Below are positions 17,694-25,682 of a stretch of DNA of 64,000 nucleotides, piece by piece. The notes under the pieces were generated by a model. That model saw only the letters and a list, made by a program, of their open reading frames with translations. It did no database searches and was not told the origin of the DNA. Numbering within the stretch: the stretch's first letter is position 1; each line of letters opens with the position of its first letter. The stretch comes from Escherichia phage vB_EcoM_PTE-Eco05. The stretch is from sequence record PQ306573.1; one strand, written 5' to 3'. A program made the translations under genes and the position numbers.

Positions 17694-17750
17694 TGTACAA
17701 CCAAGGATGGTTGGAGTATAATGAACCTATCTTAACGAGAGGAAAATATT

Positions 17751-18701
17751 ATGACACGTTCACATTACATTGAATACTTTGCCGGTCTTATCGCTAACGT
17801 TCATGCTCAGCGCGCTTCTGGTGCACTAGGATTTGATGTTCCACACCGAGATGTAGTAAGTGGTATTCTTCGCGATTTTGGTACATACACAGGCCAAGAA
17901 AATCATATCTGTAAAGATACTCAAAATGCATATTCTCATTCATTAGGGACACTGCTTCAATGGTTCAAACGTTCTCGTTTATTATCTTCTACTGTAGCTC
18001 GTGATAACATCAAAAACTTTATGAAGCCGAGCTTTATTAAATCTGTGACATCTAAAACCGATTTGGTTGAATTCACTATTGTTAATGATGTTAAAAAGAC
18101 TCATTTGGCTGATTGGTTATCTACCATTCCTGAAACTAAATTTGCTGATAAATTTGCTTGTGAATTCAATAACCAAGTGAATATGCTTTTTAAACATTCT
18201 CGTAAATTATTCACAGGTGGCGATGGTCGTACAAATAAAGTTCATGTTAAAGATTGGGTTACTGCAGTATTCAAACCAACTGGTAATGGTAACGCATCAT
18301 TGTCAATTGATATCCAGGTTCCTTATTACTACTCACGTAATCTCGGTACCATGAAAGCTGAAGAAATTAATAAGCATAACAAAACCGTTCGTTCGTTGTC
18401 TTATAAACTTATTACATTGTTAGAGACTATGGATGTTGTTGAAACGTTCGACGAATCCGAAGATAACGGTTCAATGTTATACAGTTCTCGTACCCGAATT
18501 AAGCTGAAGTCCCCTAACGAGTATAAGCCTAAGCCTATTAAAGAGCCTAAAGCAGAAAAAGTTGATAACTTAAGAGAAGAACGCGAATATCTCAAATCTC
18601 GTCTGAAAGAAGTCGAAGCCCAGATTGCAGAACAAACTAAATCGTTAAAAGCTCTGAATGCGAAAGCGGATGGTTTACGAAATGCCATTGAGGTTTTATA
18701 A
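17751..18701 (+). CDS. hypothetical protein with C-terminal coiled coil
   Basis: 316-aa ORF. Confidence 0.55.
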   Translation: MTRSHYIEYFAGLIANVHAQRASGALGFDVPHRDVVSGILRDFGTYTGQENHICKDTQNAYSHSLGTLLQWFKRSRLLSSTVARDNIKNFMKPSFIKSVTSKTDLVEFTIVNDVKKTHLADWLSTIPETKFADKFACEFNNQVNMLFKHSRKLFTGGDGRTNKVHVKDWVTAVFKPTGNGNASLSIDIQVPYYYSRNLGTMKAEEINKHNKTVRSLSYKLITLLETMDVVETFDESEDNGSMLYSSRTRIKLKSPNEYKPKPIKEPKAEKVDNLREEREYLKSRLKEVEAQIAEQTKSLKALNAKADGLRNAIEVL

Positions 18702-19006
18702 TGAAACTACGTCTTTTAGAGGATATTGATATGAACACTAATCACAGCTTGGTTAAGTTTATTGACGATAGTTCAAAGATTGAATTTGTTCAGCGAGATA
18801 AAATCCACGGTGAAGAGGAGTTCGTTCCTCCAGCATGGAACGAAATCATGAAAATGGTTGAACGACGTGAAAATGCTGCCAAATCGGCAGCAAAACATCC
18901 ATGTCCGGAATGTGGAACTATCCAAGTCCAACTGGTTAACTGGACCACTGATAACTTGAAATTGAAATGCCGTAAATGCTTCCACAAATTTGAGAGAACA
19001 TTATAA
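18701..19006 (+). CDS. small zinc-ribbon protein
   Basis: CPECG...CRKC. Confidence 0.5.
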   Translation: MKLRLLEDIDMNTNHSLVKFIDDSSKIEFVQRDKIHGEEEFVPPAWNEIMKMVERRENAAKSAAKHPCPECGTIQVQLVNWTTDNLKLKCRKCFHKFERTL

Positions 19007-19419
19007 TGAGATATAGCCTTCGTTGTTTTATTGCAGCTTTAGTTTTTGCCATCATTCCATTTATTTGGAACAACCAGAATACTTACATGGAAACTAAAGT
19101 AATTCCTGTGGAGGTAGTGGAATTAATTTCAGGTCAATCTACAGGAAAATATTCTAAATTAGAATTTATTGCCGTCTATAAAGATGAGCAAGGACGAGTT
19201 TTTGACAGGCGTGTATCACCTTCGTTTTATACGCTTCTGAATAAAGGTGATACGATAGCTATAGAAATTCGTGAGATGGATATCAAACAAACTACTAAAG
19301 ATAACCTGATTTGGTTCTTTGGTACGGTGTTGATGTTCTCTATCTGTATCACAGGTTTTATTACATGTATTGTATTTGGTGTTGCATATTTAATCGATGA
19401 AAGGAAAAATAATGTTTAA
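19006..19419 (+). CDS. membrane protein
   Basis: hydrophobic N- and C-terminal segments. Confidence 0.5.
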   Translation: MRYSLRCFIAALVFAIIPFIWNNQNTYMETKVIPVEVVELISGQSTGKYSKLEFIAVYKDEQGRVFDRRVSPSFYTLLNKGDTIAIEIREMDIKQTTKDNLIWFFGTVLMFSICITGFITCIVFGVAYLIDERKNNV

Positions 19420-19675
19420 AGTGTACGGGTATGACTCTACTATTCATAAATGCATTTATTGTGATAATGCGAAACGATTGCTGACTGTTAAGAAACAGCC
19501 ATTCGAATTCATTAATGTTATGCCAGAAAAAGGTGTGTTCGATGATGAGAAAATTGCTGAGCTTCTGGTTAAGCTTGGACGTGAATCACAAGTCGGATTG
19601 ACTATGCCTCAAGTGTTTGCTCCTGACGGAAGTCATATTGGTGGTTTTAATGAATTGCGAGAATATTTTAAATGA
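19412..19675 (+). CDS. nrdC: thioredoxin/glutaredoxin
   Basis: MFKVYGYDSTIHKCIYCDNAKRLL... near-identical to T4 NrdC; CxxC. Confidence 0.93.
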   Translation: MFKVYGYDSTIHKCIYCDNAKRLLTVKKQPFEFINVMPEKGVFDDEKIAELLVKLGRESQVGLTMPQVFAPDGSHIGGFNELREYFK

Positions 19676-20007
19676 ACGATATTGATTTCGCCAAAGCATA
19701 TAAATTTGTAGCAACTCTTCTCGGCCCTGACGCTCCTACTAAGCTTGAAGTTTTAAATTCTATTCCGACTTCATTGGTTCGAGATGCTGAAATATGGACA
19801 TGGGACGACCCGGCTGTTTGTGAAGACCTGTACATTCTGATGAATGACATGATGGTTAAAAAGCCTGAAACAATGGTTACCATTACCGTTGAAGAATATA
19901 ATCGCCTGCAAGCCATTGAAGAGCTTCTGTGGAACATTGAATCGGCTTTGCCATCCGGACTAGAATCCTGGATTGATTATGAAGAGCTCAATAAGCTCCG
20001 CGGTTAA
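19672..20007 (+). CDS. hypothetical acidic protein
   Basis: 111-aa ORF. Confidence 0.5.
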   Translation: MNDIDFAKAYKFVATLLGPDAPTKLEVLNSIPTSLVRDAEIWTWDDPAVCEDLYILMNDMMVKKPETMVTITVEEYNRLQAIEELLWNIESALPSGLESWIDYEELNKLRG

Positions 20008-20308
20008 ACCGTGGTATTCGGCTCGATGGGAGACTGTCGAGCCAGACGTCGAAACGGTTTACAACGACGAAGAACCATGTTATGATGAACCTTCAATAAA
20101 TGAATTAATTGATATGGAAATGGGAAGAGATTATTATGCAAGTTAAATTACTGTACCGTTTATTAAAAAATGGCAAACATGATTGGTATTTGCTTATTAA
20201 AACCGATCCGAATTTTTTCTCTGGACAACCATTTACAGTTCGTCCTACTAAACGTCAGCTTCGCAAAGCTAAACGTTCTCATCGTAACTTTTATAACGTT
20301 TACTAAAT

Positions 20309-20340
20309 TATAAATACCCTTATCTATTTAAGGTAAGGGT
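20309..20340 (+). promoter_or_regulatory. late promoter TATAAATA plus 7-bp hairpin occluding the gene 49 RBS
   Basis: TATAAATA at 20309-20316; ACCCTTA (20316-20322) pairs TAAGGGT (20334-20340). Confidence 0.55.
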
Positions 20341-20345
20341 TTATC

Positions 20346-20819
20346 ATGCTATTATCAGGCGCAAAATATAAAGAAGAAAAACAAAAATTTTATGATGCAC
20401 AGAATGGTAAGTGTCCTATTTGCCGCCGTGAATTAGACCCTGATGTTCAAGGTAACCATCTTGACCACGACCACGAATTAAACGGGCCAAAAGCCGGTAG
20501 AGTTCGTGGATTACTCTGTAATCTGTGCAATGCAGCAGAAGGCCAAATGAAGCATAAGTTTAATCGTTCCGGACTTAAAGGACGTGATGTCGACTACCTC
20601 GAATGGCTTGAAGCTCTTCTTGCTTATTTGAAACAAGATTATTCTGATAATAATATCCATCCTAATTTTGTTCCAGACAAAACTAAAGAGTTCTCAAGAC
20701 TAGGTAAAGAGGAAATGATGGCTGAGATGCTTCAAAGAGGATTTGAATATAATGAATCTGATACTAAAACACAATTAATAGCTTCATTCAAAAAGCAGCT
20801 TAGAAAGAGTTTAAAATGA
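20346..20819 (+). CDS. 49: endonuclease VII (Holliday junction resolvase)
   Basis: 157 aa near-identical to T4 gp49 (CPICRRELDP...HDHELNGPKAG). Confidence 0.95.
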   Translation: MLLSGAKYKEEKQKFYDAQNGKCPICRRELDPDVQGNHLDHDHELNGPKAGRVRGLLCNLCNAAEGQMKHKFNRSGLKGRDVDYLEWLEALLAYLKQDYSDNNIHPNFVPDKTKEFSRLGKEEMMAEMLQRGFEYNESDTKTQLIASFKKQLRKSLK

Positions 20820-22633
20820 AAATTGAAAAAGAAATTGAAGGACTGATTCATAAAACTAATAAAGACCTTTTAAACGAGAATGCTAATAAAGATTCTCGTG
20901 TTTTTCCAACTCAACGGGACCTTATGGCTGGTATTGTGTCTAAGCACATTGCCAAAAATATGGTCCCGTCTTTTATTATGAATGCGCATGAAAGCGGAAT
21001 CATTCACATGCATGATATTGATTATTCTCCTGCTCTTCCATTTACTAATTGTTGTTTAGTAGATTTAAAAGGAATGCTTGAGAATGGATTTAAATTAGGC
21101 AATGCTCAAATTGAAACGCCTAAATCGATTGGTGTTGCTACTGCAATTATGGCACAAATTACTGCACAAGTTGCTTCACACCAGTATGGCGGAACTACAT
21201 TTGCGAATGTAGATAAAGTACTTTCTCCTTATGTTAAACGCACCTATGCAAAACATATTGAGGATGCAGAAAAATGGCAAATCGCTGATGCGTTGAATTA
21301 TGCTCAATCTAAAACAGAAAAAGACGTATACGATGCATTCCAAGCTTACGAATATGAAGTAAATACTCTCTTTAGTTCAAACGGGCAAACACCTTTTGTA
21401 ACAATTACATTTGGTACAGGAACTGACTGGACTGAACGAATGATTCAGAAAGCAATTCTGAAAAATCGTATTAAAGGTCTTGGTCGTGATGGGATAACTC
21501 CTATTTTTCCTAAACTTGTTATGTTTGTTGAAGAAGGTGTTAATCTTTATAAAGATGATCCGAACTATGATATTAAACAACTTGCGTTAGAATGTGCAAG
21601 CAAAAGAATGTATCCTGACATTATTTCGGTTAAGAATAATAAAGCTATTACCGGTTCTTCAGTTCCTGTTTCTCCGATGGGTTGTCGTAGTTTCTTGAGC
21701 GTATGGAAAGATTCGACTGGTAATGAAATTCTTGATGGACGTAATAATCTTGGTGTTGTAACACTGAATCTTCCTCGCATCGCGTTAGATTCTTATATTG
21801 GAACACAGTTCAATGAACAGAAATTTGTTGAGCTATTTAACGAACGAATGGACCTGTGTTTTGAAGCCTTGATGTGTAGAATTAGTTCTTTAAAGGGTGT
21901 TAAAGCTACTGTTGCTCCTATTCTTTACCAAGAAGGTGCATTCGGTGTTCGTCTTAAACCCGATGACGATATAATTGAGTTATTTAAAAACGGTAGAAGT
22001 TCAGTTTCCCTAGGATACATTGGTATTCACGAATTGAATATTCTTGTCGGTCGTGATATTGGACGAGAAATTTTGACTAAAATGAATGCTCATCTTAAAC
22101 AGTGGACTGAAAGAACTGGATTTGCTTTTAGTTTATATTCTACTCCTGCTGAAAACCTTTGTTATCGCTTCTGTAAACTTGATACAGAAAAATATGGAAG
22201 CGTAAAAGATGTTACCGATAAAGGTTGGTACACTAATAGTTTCCATGTTTCAGTAGAAGAAAATATTACTCCGTTTGAAAAGATTTCTCGTGAAGCACCA
22301 TATCATTTCATTGCGACCGGCGGTCACATTTCTTATGTTGAACTTCCTGATATGAAAAATAACTTAAAGGGCCTTGAGGCTGTATGGGATTATGCTGCAC
22401 AACATTTAGATTATTTTGGTGTTAACATGCCGGTAGATAAATGTTTTACATGTGGAAGTACCCATGAAATGTCTCCTACCGAAAACGGATTTGTTTGTTC
22501 AGTTTGTGGAGAAAGTGATCCTAAAAAGATGAACACAATAAGAAGAACATGCGGATATCTTGGAACTCCTAGCGTTGTTCCATGGAATTTAGGTAAAATG
22601 AAAGAAATGGTAAAACGAGTAAAACATGCATAG
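20816..22633 (+). CDS. nrdD: anaerobic ribonucleoside-triphosphate reductase
   Basis: 605 aa; C-terminal Zn-ribbon and glycyl-radical motif RRTCGYLG; contiguous ORF, no intron. Confidence 0.95.
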   Translation: MKIEKEIEGLIHKTNKDLLNENANKDSRVFPTQRDLMAGIVSKHIAKNMVPSFIMNAHESGIIHMHDIDYSPALPFTNCCLVDLKGMLENGFKLGNAQIETPKSIGVATAIMAQITAQVASHQYGGTTFANVDKVLSPYVKRTYAKHIEDAEKWQIADALNYAQSKTEKDVYDAFQAYEYEVNTLFSSNGQTPFVTITFGTGTDWTERMIQKAILKNRIKGLGRDGITPIFPKLVMFVEEGVNLYKDDPNYDIKQLALECASKRMYPDIISVKNNKAITGSSVPVSPMGCRSFLSVWKDSTGNEILDGRNNLGVVTLNLPRIALDSYIGTQFNEQKFVELFNERMDLCFEALMCRISSLKGVKATVAPILYQEGAFGVRLKPDDDIIELFKNGRSSVSLGYIGIHELNILVGRDIGREILTKMNAHLKQWTERTGFAFSLYSTPAENLCYRFCKLDTEKYGSVKDVTDKGWYTNSFHVSVEENITPFEKISREAPYHFIATGGHISYVELPDMKNNLKGLEAVWDYAAQHLDYFGVNMPVDKCFTCGSTHEMSPTENGFVCSVCGESDPKKMNTIRRTCGYLGTPSVVPWNLGKMKEMVKRVKHA

Positions 22634-23456
22634 GTATTATATAATTTATAAAATAACAAATATAATTAATTCAAAGGAATATATCGGTGCTATGCGCACC
22701 GATAACATAAATGATGGTTATATGGGGTCAGGAACATTGATTCGTGCCGCTTTATTAAAATATGGTAGAAAAAATTTTAATAAAGAAATTTTACATGTTT
22801 TTGATAATGAAAAACAAATGTATGATAAAGAAGCTGAACTTGTAACCGAAGAGTATTGTCTAAAAGAAAATACATATAATATTAAACCTGGTGGAAAAGG
22901 TGGAACTGCCTATGAACAGACACTTGAACATCGCCGTAAAAATAGTTTAGCAAATAAAGGTAAAAAGAGAACAGAAGAAACTAAAATAGCTATTTCACGT
23001 GCTTTAAAGAAATATAAACGTACGCCAGAGCATCAAGCAAATTTAAATAAAGCCGTAAGCATAGCTATGAAGCGAAAAGATGTTAGAAGTAAATTAGCTG
23101 GAGAGCGGTCTGAGAAAGATAAATTATCTATATCAAACGGTGTTAAAAAATATTACAATTCTTTGAGTGAAGAAGAACGCGAACTTCATCGCAAGCGAAT
23201 TATTGAAGGTAAAAAGAATTCTCCCATGTCATTGGAATCTAGACAAAAGCTTTCAAAAGCTTTAAAAGGGCTTCAAGTTGGTTCAAAAAATCCAATGTAT
23301 GGAAAAATTTCTCCAACTAGCAAAACCGTTTCAGTTGACGGTATTAAATATGATTCAATTAAAAAGTGCTCAAATGCCATAAAAGTTTCTAGACATCTTA
23401 TACTAAAACGCTGTAATTCTACTGATGAAGCTTGGAAAAATTGGATATTATTATGA
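22626..23456 (+). mobile_element. free-standing GIY-YIG homing endonuclease gene (seg/mob-like)
   Basis: YIIYKITNIINSKEYIG GIY-YIG motif; basic C-terminal repeats; overlaps nrdD stop and nrdG start. Confidence 0.85.
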
Positions 23457-23923
23457 ATTATGACAGAATATACCCGTGCTGCTTTGTTAATGGTCCTGGA
23501 TGCAGGACAGTTCTTTTCGTTACAGGTTGTTTGCATAAATGCGAAGGGTGTTATAATAAATCAACATGGAATGCTAGAAATGGTGTTCCATTCACTAGTG
23601 AAACACTAGAACAATTGATTGAATGTTTGAATAATGATTATATAGAAGGATTAACTATAACCGGAGGAGACCCTCTCTATCCTGATAACCGAGATGTTAT
23701 TCATCGCATTGCTCAAACAGTAAAAAATCTTTATCCCAATAAAAGCATTTGGATGTGGACAGGATATAAGTTTGAAGATATTAAACAACTAGAAATGCTT
23801 AAATATGTTGATGTTATTATTGATGGGAAGTATGAGAAAAATCTTCCGACTAAAAAGCTGTGGCGAGGATCAGATAATCAGCGACTTTGGTCAAATACCG
23901 ATGGGGTGTGGAAACATGATTAA
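23453..23923 (+). CDS. nrdG: anaerobic RNR activating enzyme (radical SAM)
   Basis: MNYDRIYP...GCLHKCEGCYN close to T4 NrdG. Confidence 0.92.
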   Translation: MNYDRIYPCCFVNGPGCRTVLFVTGCLHKCEGCYNKSTWNARNGVPFTSETLEQLIECLNNDYIEGLTITGGDPLYPDNRDVIHRIAQTVKNLYPNKSIWMWTGYKFEDIKQLEMLKYVDVIIDGKYEKNLPTKKLWRGSDNQRLWSNTDGVWKHD

Positions 23924-24033
23924 ATTGAATTACATTATGGATACTATAAATGATATGATTTTTCGTTTTGGTCCAGAATTTTATTCGCAATATAGTTTAG
24001 TGCTTATCAATGCTTAGTTAATTAAGGGCAAAT

Positions 24034-24246
24034 ATGTATAAATTTCGTAAAGGTTTAGCTGATTTTCTTACAACTGTAACGTTCTTTTTGTTTATGGCAG
24101 TTGGAGCTATTTTTCTTATTCCTTTTACTGGTGTATTTTTCGTGATTAGTTTAATTTCTCCGGAAAAGGGTTTATCCTCCAGCGAATTCAATGAACGTTT
24201 GGACAAAATTACTAATAAACTGAATTCTGTTCTTGGCAAGGAATAA
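24034..24246 (+). CDS. small membrane protein
   Basis: 70 aa, two hydrophobic helices. Confidence 0.45.
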   Translation: MYKFRKGLADFLTTVTFFLFMAVGAIFLIPFTGVFFVISLISPEKGLSSSEFNERLDKITNKLNSVLGKE

Positions 24247-24248
24247 TT

Positions 24249-24557
24249 GTGGAACACAACAAGATTGAAATTTATGGCATCCCTGAAGAAGTTGGACGTT
24301 GTCCAGGATGTTATACTGTTACAAAACTTTTAAAGGAGCTCAATGCTCCTTATACATTTTATAAAGTCCTCACTAATAATGGTAAGATTGAATACGACCG
24401 TCCTTTAATCGTATCTCTTGCTAAACGTGCAGGATTCACTTCACTTAATATTCGTTATCCTGTCATATTTTTAAATGATAAGAAACAAAAGAATATTGCA
24501 GAGTTTAAAAAGTCCTTGATTTCATTAGGATATGACTCTGATATCATAGAAGATTGA
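24249..24557 (+). CDS. nrdH: glutaredoxin-like protein (NrdH-like)
   Basis: GTG start; CPGC redox motif near N-terminus; position downstream of nrdG as in T4. Confidence 0.55.
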   Translation: MEHNKIEIYGIPEEVGRCPGCYTVTKLLKELNAPYTFYKVLTNNGKIEYDRPLIVSLAKRAGFTSLNIRYPVIFLNDKKQKNIAEFKKSLISLGYDSDIIED

Positions 24558-24580
24558 CCAGGTGCCGCCTGGTCTTCTTT
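24556..24580 (+). terminator. rho-independent terminator
   Basis: GACCAGG-TGCCG-CCTGGTC followed by TTCTTT. Confidence 0.5.
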
Positions 24581-24724
24581 ATCTCATTTCTAATATAATC
24601 CATTGGAATCTTCACTTCACTATCTCCTTGGGCCCCTCTCAAATAAAAAATATTTTCATAAAACAGTTTTACATCCTCAATAGATGTGTTAAGATTAACA
24701 CCATCTACCGCAGAGGAAAACAAA

Positions 24725-24973
24725 ATGATTAGTCTGAATTCGAAGAAAGTTGTTCTATCTCTTAATGTAAATAACGAACGTCCGATATTCATTACCATTT
24801 CCGATTTGAACGTTGAAATTGCTAATGGCATCCGTACTTATCAAACGTCTAAAACACATTGGGACTATATCCCGATGTTGACGCTTACTCAGCGTTTAGA
24901 AGCAATTGGCCTTAAAGACCTTTCAGTAAGTGAAGTGAATTTTATCAAACGCGTTGTATCAATCAACCTCTGA
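24725..24973 (+). CDS. hypothetical protein
   Basis: 82 aa from ATG 24725. Confidence 0.4.
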   Translation: MISLNSKKVVLSLNVNNERPIFITISDLNVEIANGIRTYQTSKTHWDYIPMLTLTQRLEAIGLKDLSVSEVNFIKRVVSINL

Positions 24974-24980
24974 GGTAGCT

Positions 24981-25274
24981 ATGGGTAAAACATATCGTCG
25001 TAAAGATTTGAAAGTTCGCGATTATGACTATTTTGGTAAGCGTAAAGCTCCTGACGGTGTTAGCCACAAAGACATGGTTGAAAACATTTTCCGCTCAGAT
25101 AAATGGAAACGTATGAAAGGCGTTGATTCTGAAGTCAAGAATGAAATGAATCGACAACTCCGCAAAGAAGTTCGTAAGTTGAAAAAAGATGTTTACAGTA
25201 AAGAAGAGTATGATTATAATACTTCTCATACTGAAGCCAAACGTAAAGCTAACGAATGTTATCGTTACAGTTGA
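24981..25274 (+). CDS. hypothetical basic protein
   Basis: ATG 24981 after GAGG. Confidence 0.45.
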   Translation: MGKTYRRKDLKVRDYDYFGKRKAPDGVSHKDMVENIFRSDKWKRMKGVDSEVKNEMNRQLRKEVRKLKKDVYSKEEYDYNTSHTEAKRKANECYRYS

Positions 25275-25412
25275 GGAAATTATGAATATCAAACGAATGC
25301 TTTTTAAGAAGGGATTATACACTTTAAATGTTAATCCAAAGGGTGATACAACTAAATGGTCTGTAAATGACTGAATTAAGTTCATCGATGAAAATGGGGC
25401 CTGGGACACAAA

Positions 25413-25613
25413 ATGAATCCTGAATCTATGTTATCGCAAAAGCTTCGTGAAGAACGTGCCGAATTCTTTGCCAATATGAAACTCAACGGCGTTGAGGATG
25501 AAGACTTCTTACGCTGGTTCTGGATTTACAAATACAAAGAATGCCAGCACGCTGTACTACTGACTTGTGCAGTTATGTACGAAGGCTGGAAAGGCGCTAA
25601 AAAGTTCGGATAA
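25413..25613 (+). CDS. hypothetical protein
   Basis: 66-aa ORF. Confidence 0.45.
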   Translation: MNPESMLSQKLREERAEFFANMKLNGVEDEDFLRWFWIYKYKECQHAVLLTCAVMYEGWKGAKKFG

Positions 25614-25682
25614 CGATTTACAAACTCTTGAGAGCAGAGTATAATGCTCTCATTGGATAATAAAATAACCGAGGAAAATAAT

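Follow-up and report, generated by a model that had tools for sequence, protein, structure and literature searches.

The endonuclease SegH was reportedly named in 2005 by Sandegren, Nord and Sjöberg from phages RB3, T6 and LZ2, and it is said to cleave DNA and to home; self-cleavage is reported too. PMC2988022, which cites their article (Nucleic Acids Res 2005), states that mobC is replaced by segH between nrdD and nrdG in some relatives of T4, and bioRxiv 10.1101/2022.08.31.505936 mentions segH in place of mobC in some T4 relatives with the same citation (Sandegren et al. 2005). The Seg genes of T4 often lack a promoter and overlap the upstream ORF; their enzymes cleave a conserved gene close by, and co-conversion spreads the genes. 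The activity of MobC is given as not determined (PMC2988022; Table 1 for MobC).

We analysed a 64,000-nt stretch of Escherichia phage vB_EcoM_PTE-Eco05 (PQ306573.1), hereafter the window, in which an ORF lies between two genes of the anaerobic ribonucleotide reductase:

20816–22633, plus strand: nrdD, large subunit of the anaerobic ribonucleotide reductase, 605 aa in one unbroken frame (Pfam NRDD and Gly_radical)
22626–23456, plus strand: segH ORF, 276 aa plus stop, ATG start; free-standing GIY-YIG homing endonuclease
23453–23923, plus strand: nrdG, activase of the anaerobic ribonucleotide reductase, 156 aa (Fer4_12, 5.6e-49)

Judged by its sequence, the ORF at 22626–23456 is SegH, an already characterised protein; the find is ordinary apart from the histidine change described below. 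Its product shares 274 of 276 residues (99.3%) with SegH of RB3 (GenBank AY262138) and is 97.5% identical to SegH of T6 over the full length of 276 aa; at the nucleotide level, the gene is 98.0–99.0% identical to the three original segH deposits (AY262137, AY262138 and AY262139), which annotate it as segH and include those of T6 and LZ2. The gene order and both overlaps of the RB3 deposit are as in the window. Because the same gene is present in 70 phage records (at least 91% nucleotide identity), matches PHROG_314 'homing endonuclease' at 8e-58 and has 512 homologues of its protein at E ≤ 1e-5, the ORF is not a product of chance. Between diverged segH alleles dN/dS is 0.10–0.18, and the protein is therefore under purifying selection. 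The best explanation, which we hold with high confidence, is that this gene is a segH allele, segH being a homing endonuclease gene found at the nrdD/nrdG junction of a minority of T-even-type phages, here in a Mosigvirus. As one more segH carrier in that genus, the window has little weight for discovery.

Regarding annotation, some records wrongly label segH as 'segD', and many genome records list it as 'segD', as 'hypothetical' or as a 244-aa protein without the catalytic motif, with a truncated nrdG. The window can be used as an annotation check for segH and nrdG entries.

Layout of the locus and domains of SegH

The preliminary description had reported an ORF that overlaps the nrdD stop and the nrdG start, and both overlaps can be read directly. 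The nrdD TAG stop (22631–22633) gives an 8-nt overlap with the segH start (ATGCATAG), and the segH TGA (23454–23456) overlaps the nrdG ATG at 23453 as ATGA. It had also described nrdD as a single uninterrupted 605-aa ORF, in agreement with our finding that nrdD covers the whole Pfam NRDD model (1–562 of 562, E 2.6e-171) and matches Gly_radical at 1.4e-24; the nrdG product matches Fer4_12/Radical_SAM. When all six frames of the window were scanned for the motifs, no second Seg-like ORF emerged.

The contrast drawn earlier with T4, whose nrdD carries an intron with its own endonuclease, is confirmed by the T4 annotation, which gives nrdD as a join of two pieces separated by an intron of ~1035 nt that holds I-TevII. 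When the window was aligned to T4 by blastn and the exon junctions were compared, the alignment split at 21351/21354, where T4 has 1035 nt extra, whereas the window sequence is continuous at ~21352/21353:

21340–21365, plus strand: intron-less counterpart of the place, at ~21352/21353, where T4 nrdD holds its group I intron (I-TevII)

An nrdD of 1818 nt is found in RB3, T6, phiD1, moha and LF82-1, and nrdD without the intron is the usual state. Since phage LH2 appears to carry both the nrdD intron and segH, the two elements are not mutually alternative.

The following parts were delimited in SegH:

22626–22901, plus strand: N-terminal GIY-YIG catalytic domain, aa 1–92, with IIY (6–8), YIG (19–21), E69 and N85
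23223–23309, plus strand: NUMOD3 DNA-binding motif, aa 200–228 (PF07460 in Pfam, 33.8 bits, cutoff 20.4)
23301–23444, plus strand: C-terminal I-TevI-type helix-turn-helix DNA-binding domain, aa 226–273 (PF20987 below cutoff; Foldseek 1I3J)

The claim that nrdD and nrdG are separated by a free-standing homing endonuclease gene of the GIY-YIG type was borne out by the IIY...YIG motifs, the labels of the homologues and the match to the I-TevI fold. The call is based on these three lines because the curated models stay under their cutoffs: PF19835 reaches 18.6 bits against a gathering score of 25, PF01541 gives no match, and TIGR01453 gives 51 bits (1.9e-13) against 56.05. Many SegH homologues carry PF01541/PF19835 in precomputed Pfam matches, and no HNH family match was found in the segH ORF with Pfam. 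Both I6-I7-Y8 and Y19-I20-G21 are present, with Y8, Y19 and G21 invariant in a 37-sequence alignment, as are E69 and N85, which are invariant in the family alignment. N85 lies in a YNI that lines up with the YNI motif of I-TevI in the HMMER alignment, and E69 and N85 are probably the equivalents of the catalytic residues E75 and N90 of I-TevI.

The AlphaFold model of SegH had a pLDDT of 80 overall and >92 over aa 1–90, and placed helices around NUMOD3 in a linker region spanning aa ~100–213. Its four top Foldseek matches were three chains of the I-TevI catalytic domain and the I-TevI DNA-binding domain; the best was 1MK0 (probability 1.00, target-normalised TM 0.65), 1MK0 and 1LN0 together spanned TM 0.61–0.65 on the same normalisation, both at probability 1.00, and 1I3J, the DNA-binding domain, matched the C-terminus at 0.92. 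Congruently, a SegH-family profile searched against the PDB with HMMER found 1MK0 at E 0.012; phmmer of the single sequence against the PDB returned only noise. The C-terminus matches PF20987 at E 3e-4 and 21.1 bits, below the cutoff of 27, and the Olmo homologue (47% identical) scores 41.3 bits, above it. SegH thus carries NUMOD3 and a C-terminal helix-turn-helix module of the I-TevI type.

Two other readings bear on what the ORF encodes. It might start at Met33 and yield a 244-aa protein without the GIY and YIG motifs, able only to bind DNA; several GenBank/RefSeq records (the RB3 and T6 genomes) annotate a 735-nt CDS from the equivalent of window position 22722, 244-aa members are found in the protein cluster, and neither the 276-aa start nor Met33 is preceded by a strong Shine-Dalgarno sequence. 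We consider this very unlikely, since no allele has a stop within the first 32 codons, which align with the conserved N-terminus of the family, including invariant Y8, T11, Y19 and G21, the SegH depositors annotate 276 aa (AY262138), and the model of the nuclease domain is confident from residue 1. Nor is it at all plausible that a cryptic group I intron, or an element like an intein, in nrdD or nrdG contains the ORF, as could be suggested by the intron-encoded relatives I-TevI and I-TevII and by the name of TIGR01453, 'group I intron endonuclease': it is flanked by a complete nrdD and a complete nrdG, both matching Pfam over their full length, the overlap with both genes leaves no non-coding room for an intron core, and in empty alleles nrdD and nrdG are directly joined by ATGA.

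Variation at the nrdD/nrdG junction

A census of the junction in phage records found it empty in 561 (~84%), where the nrdD TGA overlaps the nrdG ATG, and occupied by a full segH in 70 (~10.5%), by a deleted segH remnant in 2 and by mobC in 32 (~5%). The full segH copies come from three genera, Tequatrovirus, Mosigvirus and Moonvirus, and share 91–99% nucleotide identity; phage PD112 holds a decayed copy. Such sporadic occurrence is the pattern expected of a mobile element. The preliminary description had seen the footprint of such an element at nrdD/nrdG and proposed comparing the junction in related phages, and on that comparison its view stands: the junction is polymorphic (empty, segH or mobC) and segH is not universal.

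Between the window and RB3, identity is 98.9% in segH and 98.7% in the recoded nrdD tail described below, and in the flanks it is 94.8% in nrdD, 96.8% in nrdG, 81% in gene 49 and 79% in nrdH. Because nrdD and nrdG are conserved between genera even in phages without segH, this gradient is only partly attributable to co-conversion. The segH-less phage phiD1 shares 90–98% identity with the window per 200-nt bin over most of nrdD, and, being equally similar there, it led us to reject the high flank identity to Tequatrovirus as sole proof of a recent inter-genus transfer.

Two features mark the left side of segH:

22559–22633, plus strand: recoded nrdD 3' tail, last 22 codons TPSVVPWNLGKMKEMVKRVKHA and stop, versus NPNERGFNLGKNKEIMHRVKHQ and stop in alleles without segH
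22626–22634, plus strand: relic ATGCATAGG, segH codons 1–3 (M-H-R), equal to the nrdD M-H-R codons of the empty allele

In the junction alignment the recoded tail exceeds the ordinary one by 16 nt. It is always present with segH: a tail probe recovered 80 records, 72 with segH sequence and 8 others, and all six of these others that are among the matches listed are also mobC matches. The 561 empty junctions have the ordinary tail, and the tail-probe records gave no sign of a recoded tail at an empty junction. We rejected the recoded tail as the native one of Mosigvirus, given that the Mosigvirus-like LF82-1, with an empty junction, has the ordinary tail; Pseudotevenvirus, looked at as a donor, also has an nrdD tail of the ordinary type.

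A closer look at the segH start, ATG-CAT-AGG, points to the origin of this edge. In phage BEU50 the same 9-mer runs on into the remainder of the ordinary nrdD tail (GTTAAACACCAATGA), and family members elsewhere start with MxYTIYKITN, without MHR. ATGCATAGG is probably left over from the 3' end that nrdD had originally, and marks the left edge of the inserted DNA; if so, the linked recoded tail and relic would record the first entry of the cassette into nrdD. Both may also mark or shield the target of the enzyme.

An inverted hairpin loop in the window copy

The window copy differs from the other alleles at a short palindrome within the nuclease domain:

22682–22704, no strand assigned: perfect hairpin TATCGGTGC-TATGC-GCACCGATA, 9-bp arms and 5-nt loop at 22691–22695

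The loop, TATGC, is the inversion of the GCATA found in every other segH allele examined, and it converts H23-S24 into M23-R24; all the other alleles (moha, RB3, T6, LH2, KM16 and the cluster representative P0001) read H-S. The hairpin folds as DNA at −9.7 kcal/mol (z −5.25). Position 23, two residues past YIG, is a histidine in 109 of 110 family members, the window copy being the sole exception; the remaining subfamily-invariant residues (YIGxHxT...DGYMGSG) are present, so that the set is incomplete by H23. No phage record reaches 100% identity to the window protein, and the exact protein was found in only one other contig, itself 100% identical to the window.

Because a histidine kept in 109 other members is missing, the activity of this SegH is in doubt, and the allele may be catalytically impaired through the loss of H23. 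That the copy is a natural loss-of-function or attenuated allele produced by a template switch at the hairpin, with the recoded tail and ATGCATAGG separately recording the entry of the cassette, is a serious possibility, though we lean slightly against it. If it were true, the locus would show a homing endonuclease gene at the first step of its decay, one that can be dated, and the allele is a possible natural catalytic-site mutant with which to probe what the YIGxH histidine does in enzymes of the Seg type.

The same observations bear on a stronger statement, that the copy is segH by descent but a dead or crippled relic whose nuclease would be abolished by H23M/S24R, which would no longer home and would be heading for deletion. 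The near-invariant histidine, the H-S of all other alleles and the isolation of the window protein speak for it, and decayed segH in PD112 offers a precedent. However, I-TevI has no clearly equivalent residue to H23 in the HMMER alignment, the ORF is intact and apart from these residues identical to the RB3 and moha proteins, and the change may have arisen very recently or may reflect an artefact of assembly or of the library at the hairpin; on balance we place this reading a little short of probable. A different view is that segH is kept for the benefit of the phage, through exclusion of competitor markers or regulation of nrdG, and is not purely selfish. It draws on the sustained purifying selection, on the chaining of nrdG translation to segH by ATGA and on a 47%-identical homologue directly after nrdD in Pseudotevenvirus, as well as on marker exclusion and other benefits described for Seg enzymes (PMC2790892 and PMC13096335). 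Yet ~84% of related phages do without segH, purifying selection is equally expected of an actively homing selfish element, and both the window copy and PD112 show decay, which leaves phage benefit an unlikely account.

Expression, proposed homing and comparison with known endonucleases

A regex scan found a candidate promoter upstream of nrdD:

20728–20753, plus strand: match to a middle promoter with a MotA-like box (TGCTTCA-N13-TATAAT), lying within the 3' end of gene 49

As a consensus match, it is the nearest plausible promoter of a putative nrdD-segH-nrdG transcript. No late promoter TATAAATA occurs in or just upstream of segH, with none closer than 20309, and the regex scan found no well-spaced MotA box in the same interval. 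A TGCTTTA box inside segH (23000) was rejected as a promoter for its wrong spacing to the −10 element, and a sigma-70-like match in nrdG (23530–23557) was given no weight, as the region holds 6 such matches versus 17 expected by chance. Overlap-coupled cassettes without a promoter are the described pattern for the free-standing endonucleases of T4 (PMC2988022).

The mechanism that we propose is taken from the literature on the family, and its application to the window copy is our extrapolation. Lacking a promoter of its own, segH would share the nrdD transcript, and its translation would begin, through coupling or re-initiation, at the ATG that lies 8 nt before the nrdD stop, and nrdG translation would in turn be coupled to segH through the ATGA overlap. 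The predicted SegH has a two-part build, with an N-terminal GIY-YIG nuclease joined by a helical linker with NUMOD3 to a helix-turn-helix DNA-binding domain. During mixed infection it would cut the nrdD/nrdG region of a co-infecting phage, and recombinational repair off the segH-bearing genome would copy segH, along with its flanks, into the genome that had been cut (homing or marker exclusion). The moving cassette would include the recoded 22-codon nrdD tail, with the relic ATGCATAGG as its left edge. In the window copy, a replication template switch across the perfect 9-bp hairpin could have inverted the 5-nt loop, and the resulting H23M/S24R enzyme may have lost part or all of its activity, as happens early in the decay of homing endonuclease genes.

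I-TevI, encoded by the td intron of T4 and the structural archetype among GIY-YIG homing endonucleases, has the same two-part build (GIY-YIG nuclease, flexible linker, NUMOD3/helix-turn-helix DNA-binding domain) and is the best structural match for both SegH domains, at 24–26% identity over the structurally aligned region. In contrast to SegH, it is intron-encoded; moreover, the stretch from the YIG motif to the conserved K-x-G is shorter by 8 residues in SegH, HMMER puts a 9-residue insertion of I-TevI directly after YVG, and I-TevI differs where SegH-type enzymes have a conserved YIGxHxT...DGYMGSG block. I-TevII of T4 is likewise a GIY-YIG family endonuclease tied to the host gene nrdD, but it lies inside a group I intron that is missing in the window, ~1.3 kb upstream of segH.

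MobC of T4 lies at this junction as well, in the orientation of segH; it overlaps both neighbours and is also sporadic, its 32 records sharing ~99% identity across genera. Its start too is borrowed from a host gene, the N-terminus MNYDRIY duplicating the nrdG start, whereas the protein is an unrelated HNH protein of 210 aa and T4 keeps the ordinary nrdD tail. The locus cleanly illustrates competition between two unrelated endonuclease genes for a single junction, and chimeric alleles record the exchange.

The other Seg endonucleases of T4 (SegA–SegG) are free-standing GIY-YIG genes between conserved genes as well, 29–50% identical to the window SegH over the nuclease domain (tblastn), but with other insertion sites and targets. 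The closest system remains SegH of RB3, T6 and LZ2, which shares the position, the orientation, the nrdD and nrdG overlaps and the recoded nrdD tail; it differs in its host, Tequatrovirus rather than Mosigvirus, and in reading H23-S24 where the window copy, through the hairpin-loop inversion, reads M23-R24.

The endonuclease gene between nrdD and nrdG

Two genes of this stretch lie as follows:

segH ORF: 22626..23456, + strand, 276 codons with an ATG start
nrdD: 20816..22633, one ORF of 605 aa that spans the Pfam NRDD model from end to end

The preliminary description had placed an endonuclease ORF here in overlap with both neighbours, and the sequence bears this out. At the end of nrdD, which reads ATGCATAG, the ORF overlaps nrdD by 8 nt, from its ATG (22626) to the last base of the nrdD stop codon (TAG, 22631-22633), and at the end of the ORF, which reads TTATGAAT, the TGA (23454-23456) shares ATGA with the start codon of nrdG (23453), whose product matched radical-SAM activase families. 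Upstream is gene 49 (endonuclease VII). The claim that nrdD, unlike that of T4, is intronless also held: the T4 nrdD CDS is split in two, I-TevII lying between the parts, and its intron of ~1035 nt maps in the window-T4 alignment to ~21352/21353, where the window is uninterrupted. The Tequatrovirus LH2 (L014, 1-2323) appears to have, besides segH, an endonuclease-containing interruption of nrdD, where a CDS labelled "homing endonuclease" precedes an nrdD piece of 1332 nt; in that case intron and segH can coexist.

A megablast search with 22000-24000 matched 828 phage records, 69 of them spanning the whole query, with RB3, its siblings and T6 as the best matches; several records label the gene segH. 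With tblastn, the product was 99.3% identical across all 276 residues to AY262138 ("Bacteriophage RB3 NrdD, SegH, NrdG"), which is annotated with the same 8-nt and 4-nt overlaps and has sister entries for T6 (AY262137) and LZ2 (AY262139). Sequence, position and architecture all identify the element as segH, and the finding is already known. The SegH paper of 2005 (Sandegren, Nord and Sjöberg) reportedly described endonuclease activity near the gene's own locus, cleavage of both segH-containing and segH-less DNA, and homing in mixed infections. Two later papers that cite it (PMC2988022; bioRxiv 10.1101/2022.08.31.505936) state that in some relatives of T4 segH takes the place of mobC at the nrdD/nrdG junction. 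Annotation in the public records of RB3, T6 and PD112 is uneven: segH is called "segD" or "hypothetical" or is begun at Met33, giving a 244-aa product without the GIY and YIG motifs, and nrdG is begun 78 nt late (130 aa vs 156).

The curated GIY-YIG models fell just below their cutoffs for the segH product (PF19835, 18.6 bits vs 25; TIGR01453, 51 vs 56), while NUMOD3 scored above its cutoff and PHROG_314, "homing endonuclease", matched at 8e-58. An alignment of 37 homologues left Y8, T11, Y19, G21, E69, N85 and a DGYMGSG block invariant, and the best PDB match of its profile was the I-TevI catalytic domain (1MK0, E 0.012). The AlphaFold model reached a mean pLDDT of 80, exceeding 92 for residues 1-90, and its top four Foldseek PDB matches were three I-TevI catalytic-domain chains (probability 1.00) followed by the I-TevI DNA-binding domain 1I3J (0.92). 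Because of these family matches, alignment and structural models, the predicted build of SegH is of the I-TevI type: a nuclease head is joined by a helical, NUMOD3-bearing linker to a helix-turn-helix at the C terminus.

Occupancy of the junction and signs of mobility

We surveyed the junction with four probes, including mobC, the HNH endonuclease gene that T4 carries at this place.

Junction census in a 50,697-record collection; GenBank and RefSeq duplicates are included, so proportions are approximate
Empty junction: 561 records (171-nt probe from the segH-less phage phiD1, at least 80% covered)
Full-length segH: 70 records
segH remnant: 2 records (GenBank and RefSeq copies of PD112)
mobC: 32 records, three from Klebsiella phages, with identity of at least 98.6% throughout

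Far from being universal at this junction, segH is outnumbered by empty alleles (70 vs 561), in agreement with the mobility proposed for it. The original reading, a free-standing GIY-YIG homing endonuclease lodged between nrdD and nrdG, is supported. Carriers are found in Tequatrovirus (RB3, T6, LH2), Mosigvirus (the window and moha) and Moonvirus (KM16, 91% at the nucleotide level). The window shares 96% identity over 24 kb with moha, TH58 and relatives, against only 80-90% with most T4-like records; moha, classified as Mosigvirus, has segH at the same place.

Along the locus, identity between the window and RB3 is 81% in gene 49, 94.8% in the nrdD body, 98.7% in the recoded nrdD tail, 98.9% in segH, 96.8% in nrdG, 90% in 55.8 and 79% in nrdH, and is thus highest in the cassette. 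Since nrdD is well conserved even against phiD1, this gradient is supporting evidence of mobility and not proof. Between Mosigvirus and Tequatrovirus, nrdD and nrdG are about 94-98% identical and the neighbouring gene 49 and nrdH 79-81%, even in the segH-less phiD1, and the window nrdG is nearer to that of T6 (97.9%) than to that of its fellow Mosigvirus moha (92.4%); these patterns hint at repeated exchange of the region. Diverged segH alleles showed dN/dS of 0.10-0.18, as expected of a protein that needs its function to spread.

The PD112 remnant (L005, 3627-3869) is a decayed copy of segH: an in-frame deletion of 588 nt, running from one AAATATG repeat to another (at window 22758-22764 and 23346-23352), has left an 80-codon ORF. 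The same phage has an extra 273-aa ORF with NUMOD3 between gene 49 and nrdD (L005, 1005-1826), overlapping both and with no counterpart in the window; it resembles a second free-standing endonuclease, this one on the opposite side of nrdD. In the Klebsiella phages Wolf_ER13, Boboto and Shark_ER15, mobC is 98.6-99.2% identical, and the nrdG region of other Klebsiella phages is only about 74% identical to the window; this points to recent spread across genera for mobC too.

The recoded nrdD tail and chimeric junctions

Occupied and empty alleles differ by 823 nt (spans of 2001 and 1178 nt). An alignment of nine junctions broke this down into 818 inserted nt (22635-23452), 16 nt by which a recoded nrdD tail is longer, and 11 nt of the ordinary junction, GTTAAACACCA, missing from the occupied allele. 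It also defined the following feature:

Recoded nrdD tail plus 9-mer: 22559-22634

The recoding starts immediately after the glycyl-radical motif RRTCGYLG. In every segH allele the final 22 codons of nrdD are TPSVVPWNLGKMKEMVKRVKHA*, and empty alleles and T4 have NPNERGFNLGKNKEIMHRVKHQ* there. Codons 1-3 of segH, ATG-CAT-AGG (M-H-R), form the 9-mer ATGCATAGG. The ordinary tail of nrdD encodes its own M-H-R by the same 9-mer, at a position shifted by 16 nt. Elsewhere in the family, proteins begin MxYTIYKITN and lack MHR. From this we infer that segH took over its start from what remained of the former 3' end of nrdD, and that genomes with segH rely on a diverged second copy as their functional nrdD tail. 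The Pseudotevenvirus nrdD tail, examined as a donor of the recoded tail, was of the ordinary type.

A recoded-tail probe matched 80 records, 72 with segH sequence and 8 others; of the latter, the six that were among the matches listed all appear in the mobC match list. None of the 80 was seen to combine the recoded tail with an empty junction. In these records the recoded tail and an endonuclease occupant go strictly together, and the tail may confer immunity to cleavage. In BEU50 (L006, 3560-3700) the order is recoded tail, ATGCATAGG, the rest of the ordinary tail (GTTAAACACCAATGA) and mobC, so this junction combines the two occupied alleles in one chimera, with the join at the 9-mer. The same arrangement in SHFML-11, BCPEco_001, BCPSen_003 and 215Ecol030PP suggests segH/mobC allele exchange at the 9-mer. 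MobC of T4 (L002) starts MNYDRIY, encoded by ATGAATTATGACAGAAT, a near-duplicate of the nrdG start 620 nt downstream; thus the start of mobC, too, is borrowed from host-gene codons, together with the ATGA coupling.

Loop inversion, expression and related systems

RB3 and moha SegH are identical to each other, and the window protein differs from them at two adjacent residues only, M23-R24 vs H23-S24. The change maps to a hairpin with a predicted fold of -9.7 kcal/mol (z -5.25):

Perfect hairpin in segH: 22682-22704, TATCGGTGC-loop-GCACCGATA, 9-bp arms, 5-nt loop inverted

The loop (22691-22695) reads TATGC in the window and GCATA in all other alleles read, an inversion of the kind that a template switch at the hairpin would be expected to leave. 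The M23-R24 variant was found in no other phage record (top protein identity 99.3%). The exact protein has a single occurrence in a 15-billion-protein collection, on a Logan contig of 7,950 nt (SRR12795745) that matches window 17696-25645 at 100% identity and therefore represents the same phage, not an independent sighting. The substitution could also be an artefact at the hairpin. Of the 110 motif-matching family members, 109 carry a His at the second position after YIG, the window copy being the sole exception; catalytic impairment of this allele is a real possibility, albeit one towards which we do not quite lean.

The sole late-promoter consensus nearby lies at 20309, before gene 49, and a MotA-type match at 20728, before nrdD. 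We found no convincing promoter in or just before segH, and no strong Shine-Dalgarno sequence at any of the starts. This fits the pattern of T4 free-standing endonucleases as promoter-less cassettes that overlap the upstream ORF, with coupled or re-initiated translation (Edgell et al., PMC2988022). In empty alleles the nrdD TGA overlaps the nrdG ATG; as nrdG is already coupled to nrdD by ATGA there, the insertion re-creates a chain of nrdD, segH and nrdG, along which segH would be transcribed, its translation being coupled or re-initiated. Three minor features could be taken further: the substitution by hairpin flip, the recoded tail linked to an occupant, and the chimeras of segH and mobC alleles.

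In Pseudotevenvirus, the Klebsiella phage Olmo (L010, 2459-3310) and the Cronobacter phage leE (L011) carry a 47%-identical SegH-like gene directly 3' of nrdD, so the subfamily's tie to the nrdD 3' end is old; this gene has its own intergenic spacer, and no nrdG comes after it. Among the closest relatives in kind, T4 MobC occupies the same site as segH but is an unrelated HNH protein of 210 aa. I-TevI shares fold and build with SegH but is intron-encoded, and I-TevII has the same host gene, nrdD, but lies within an intron missing from the window; the other Seg enzymes also belong in this company.
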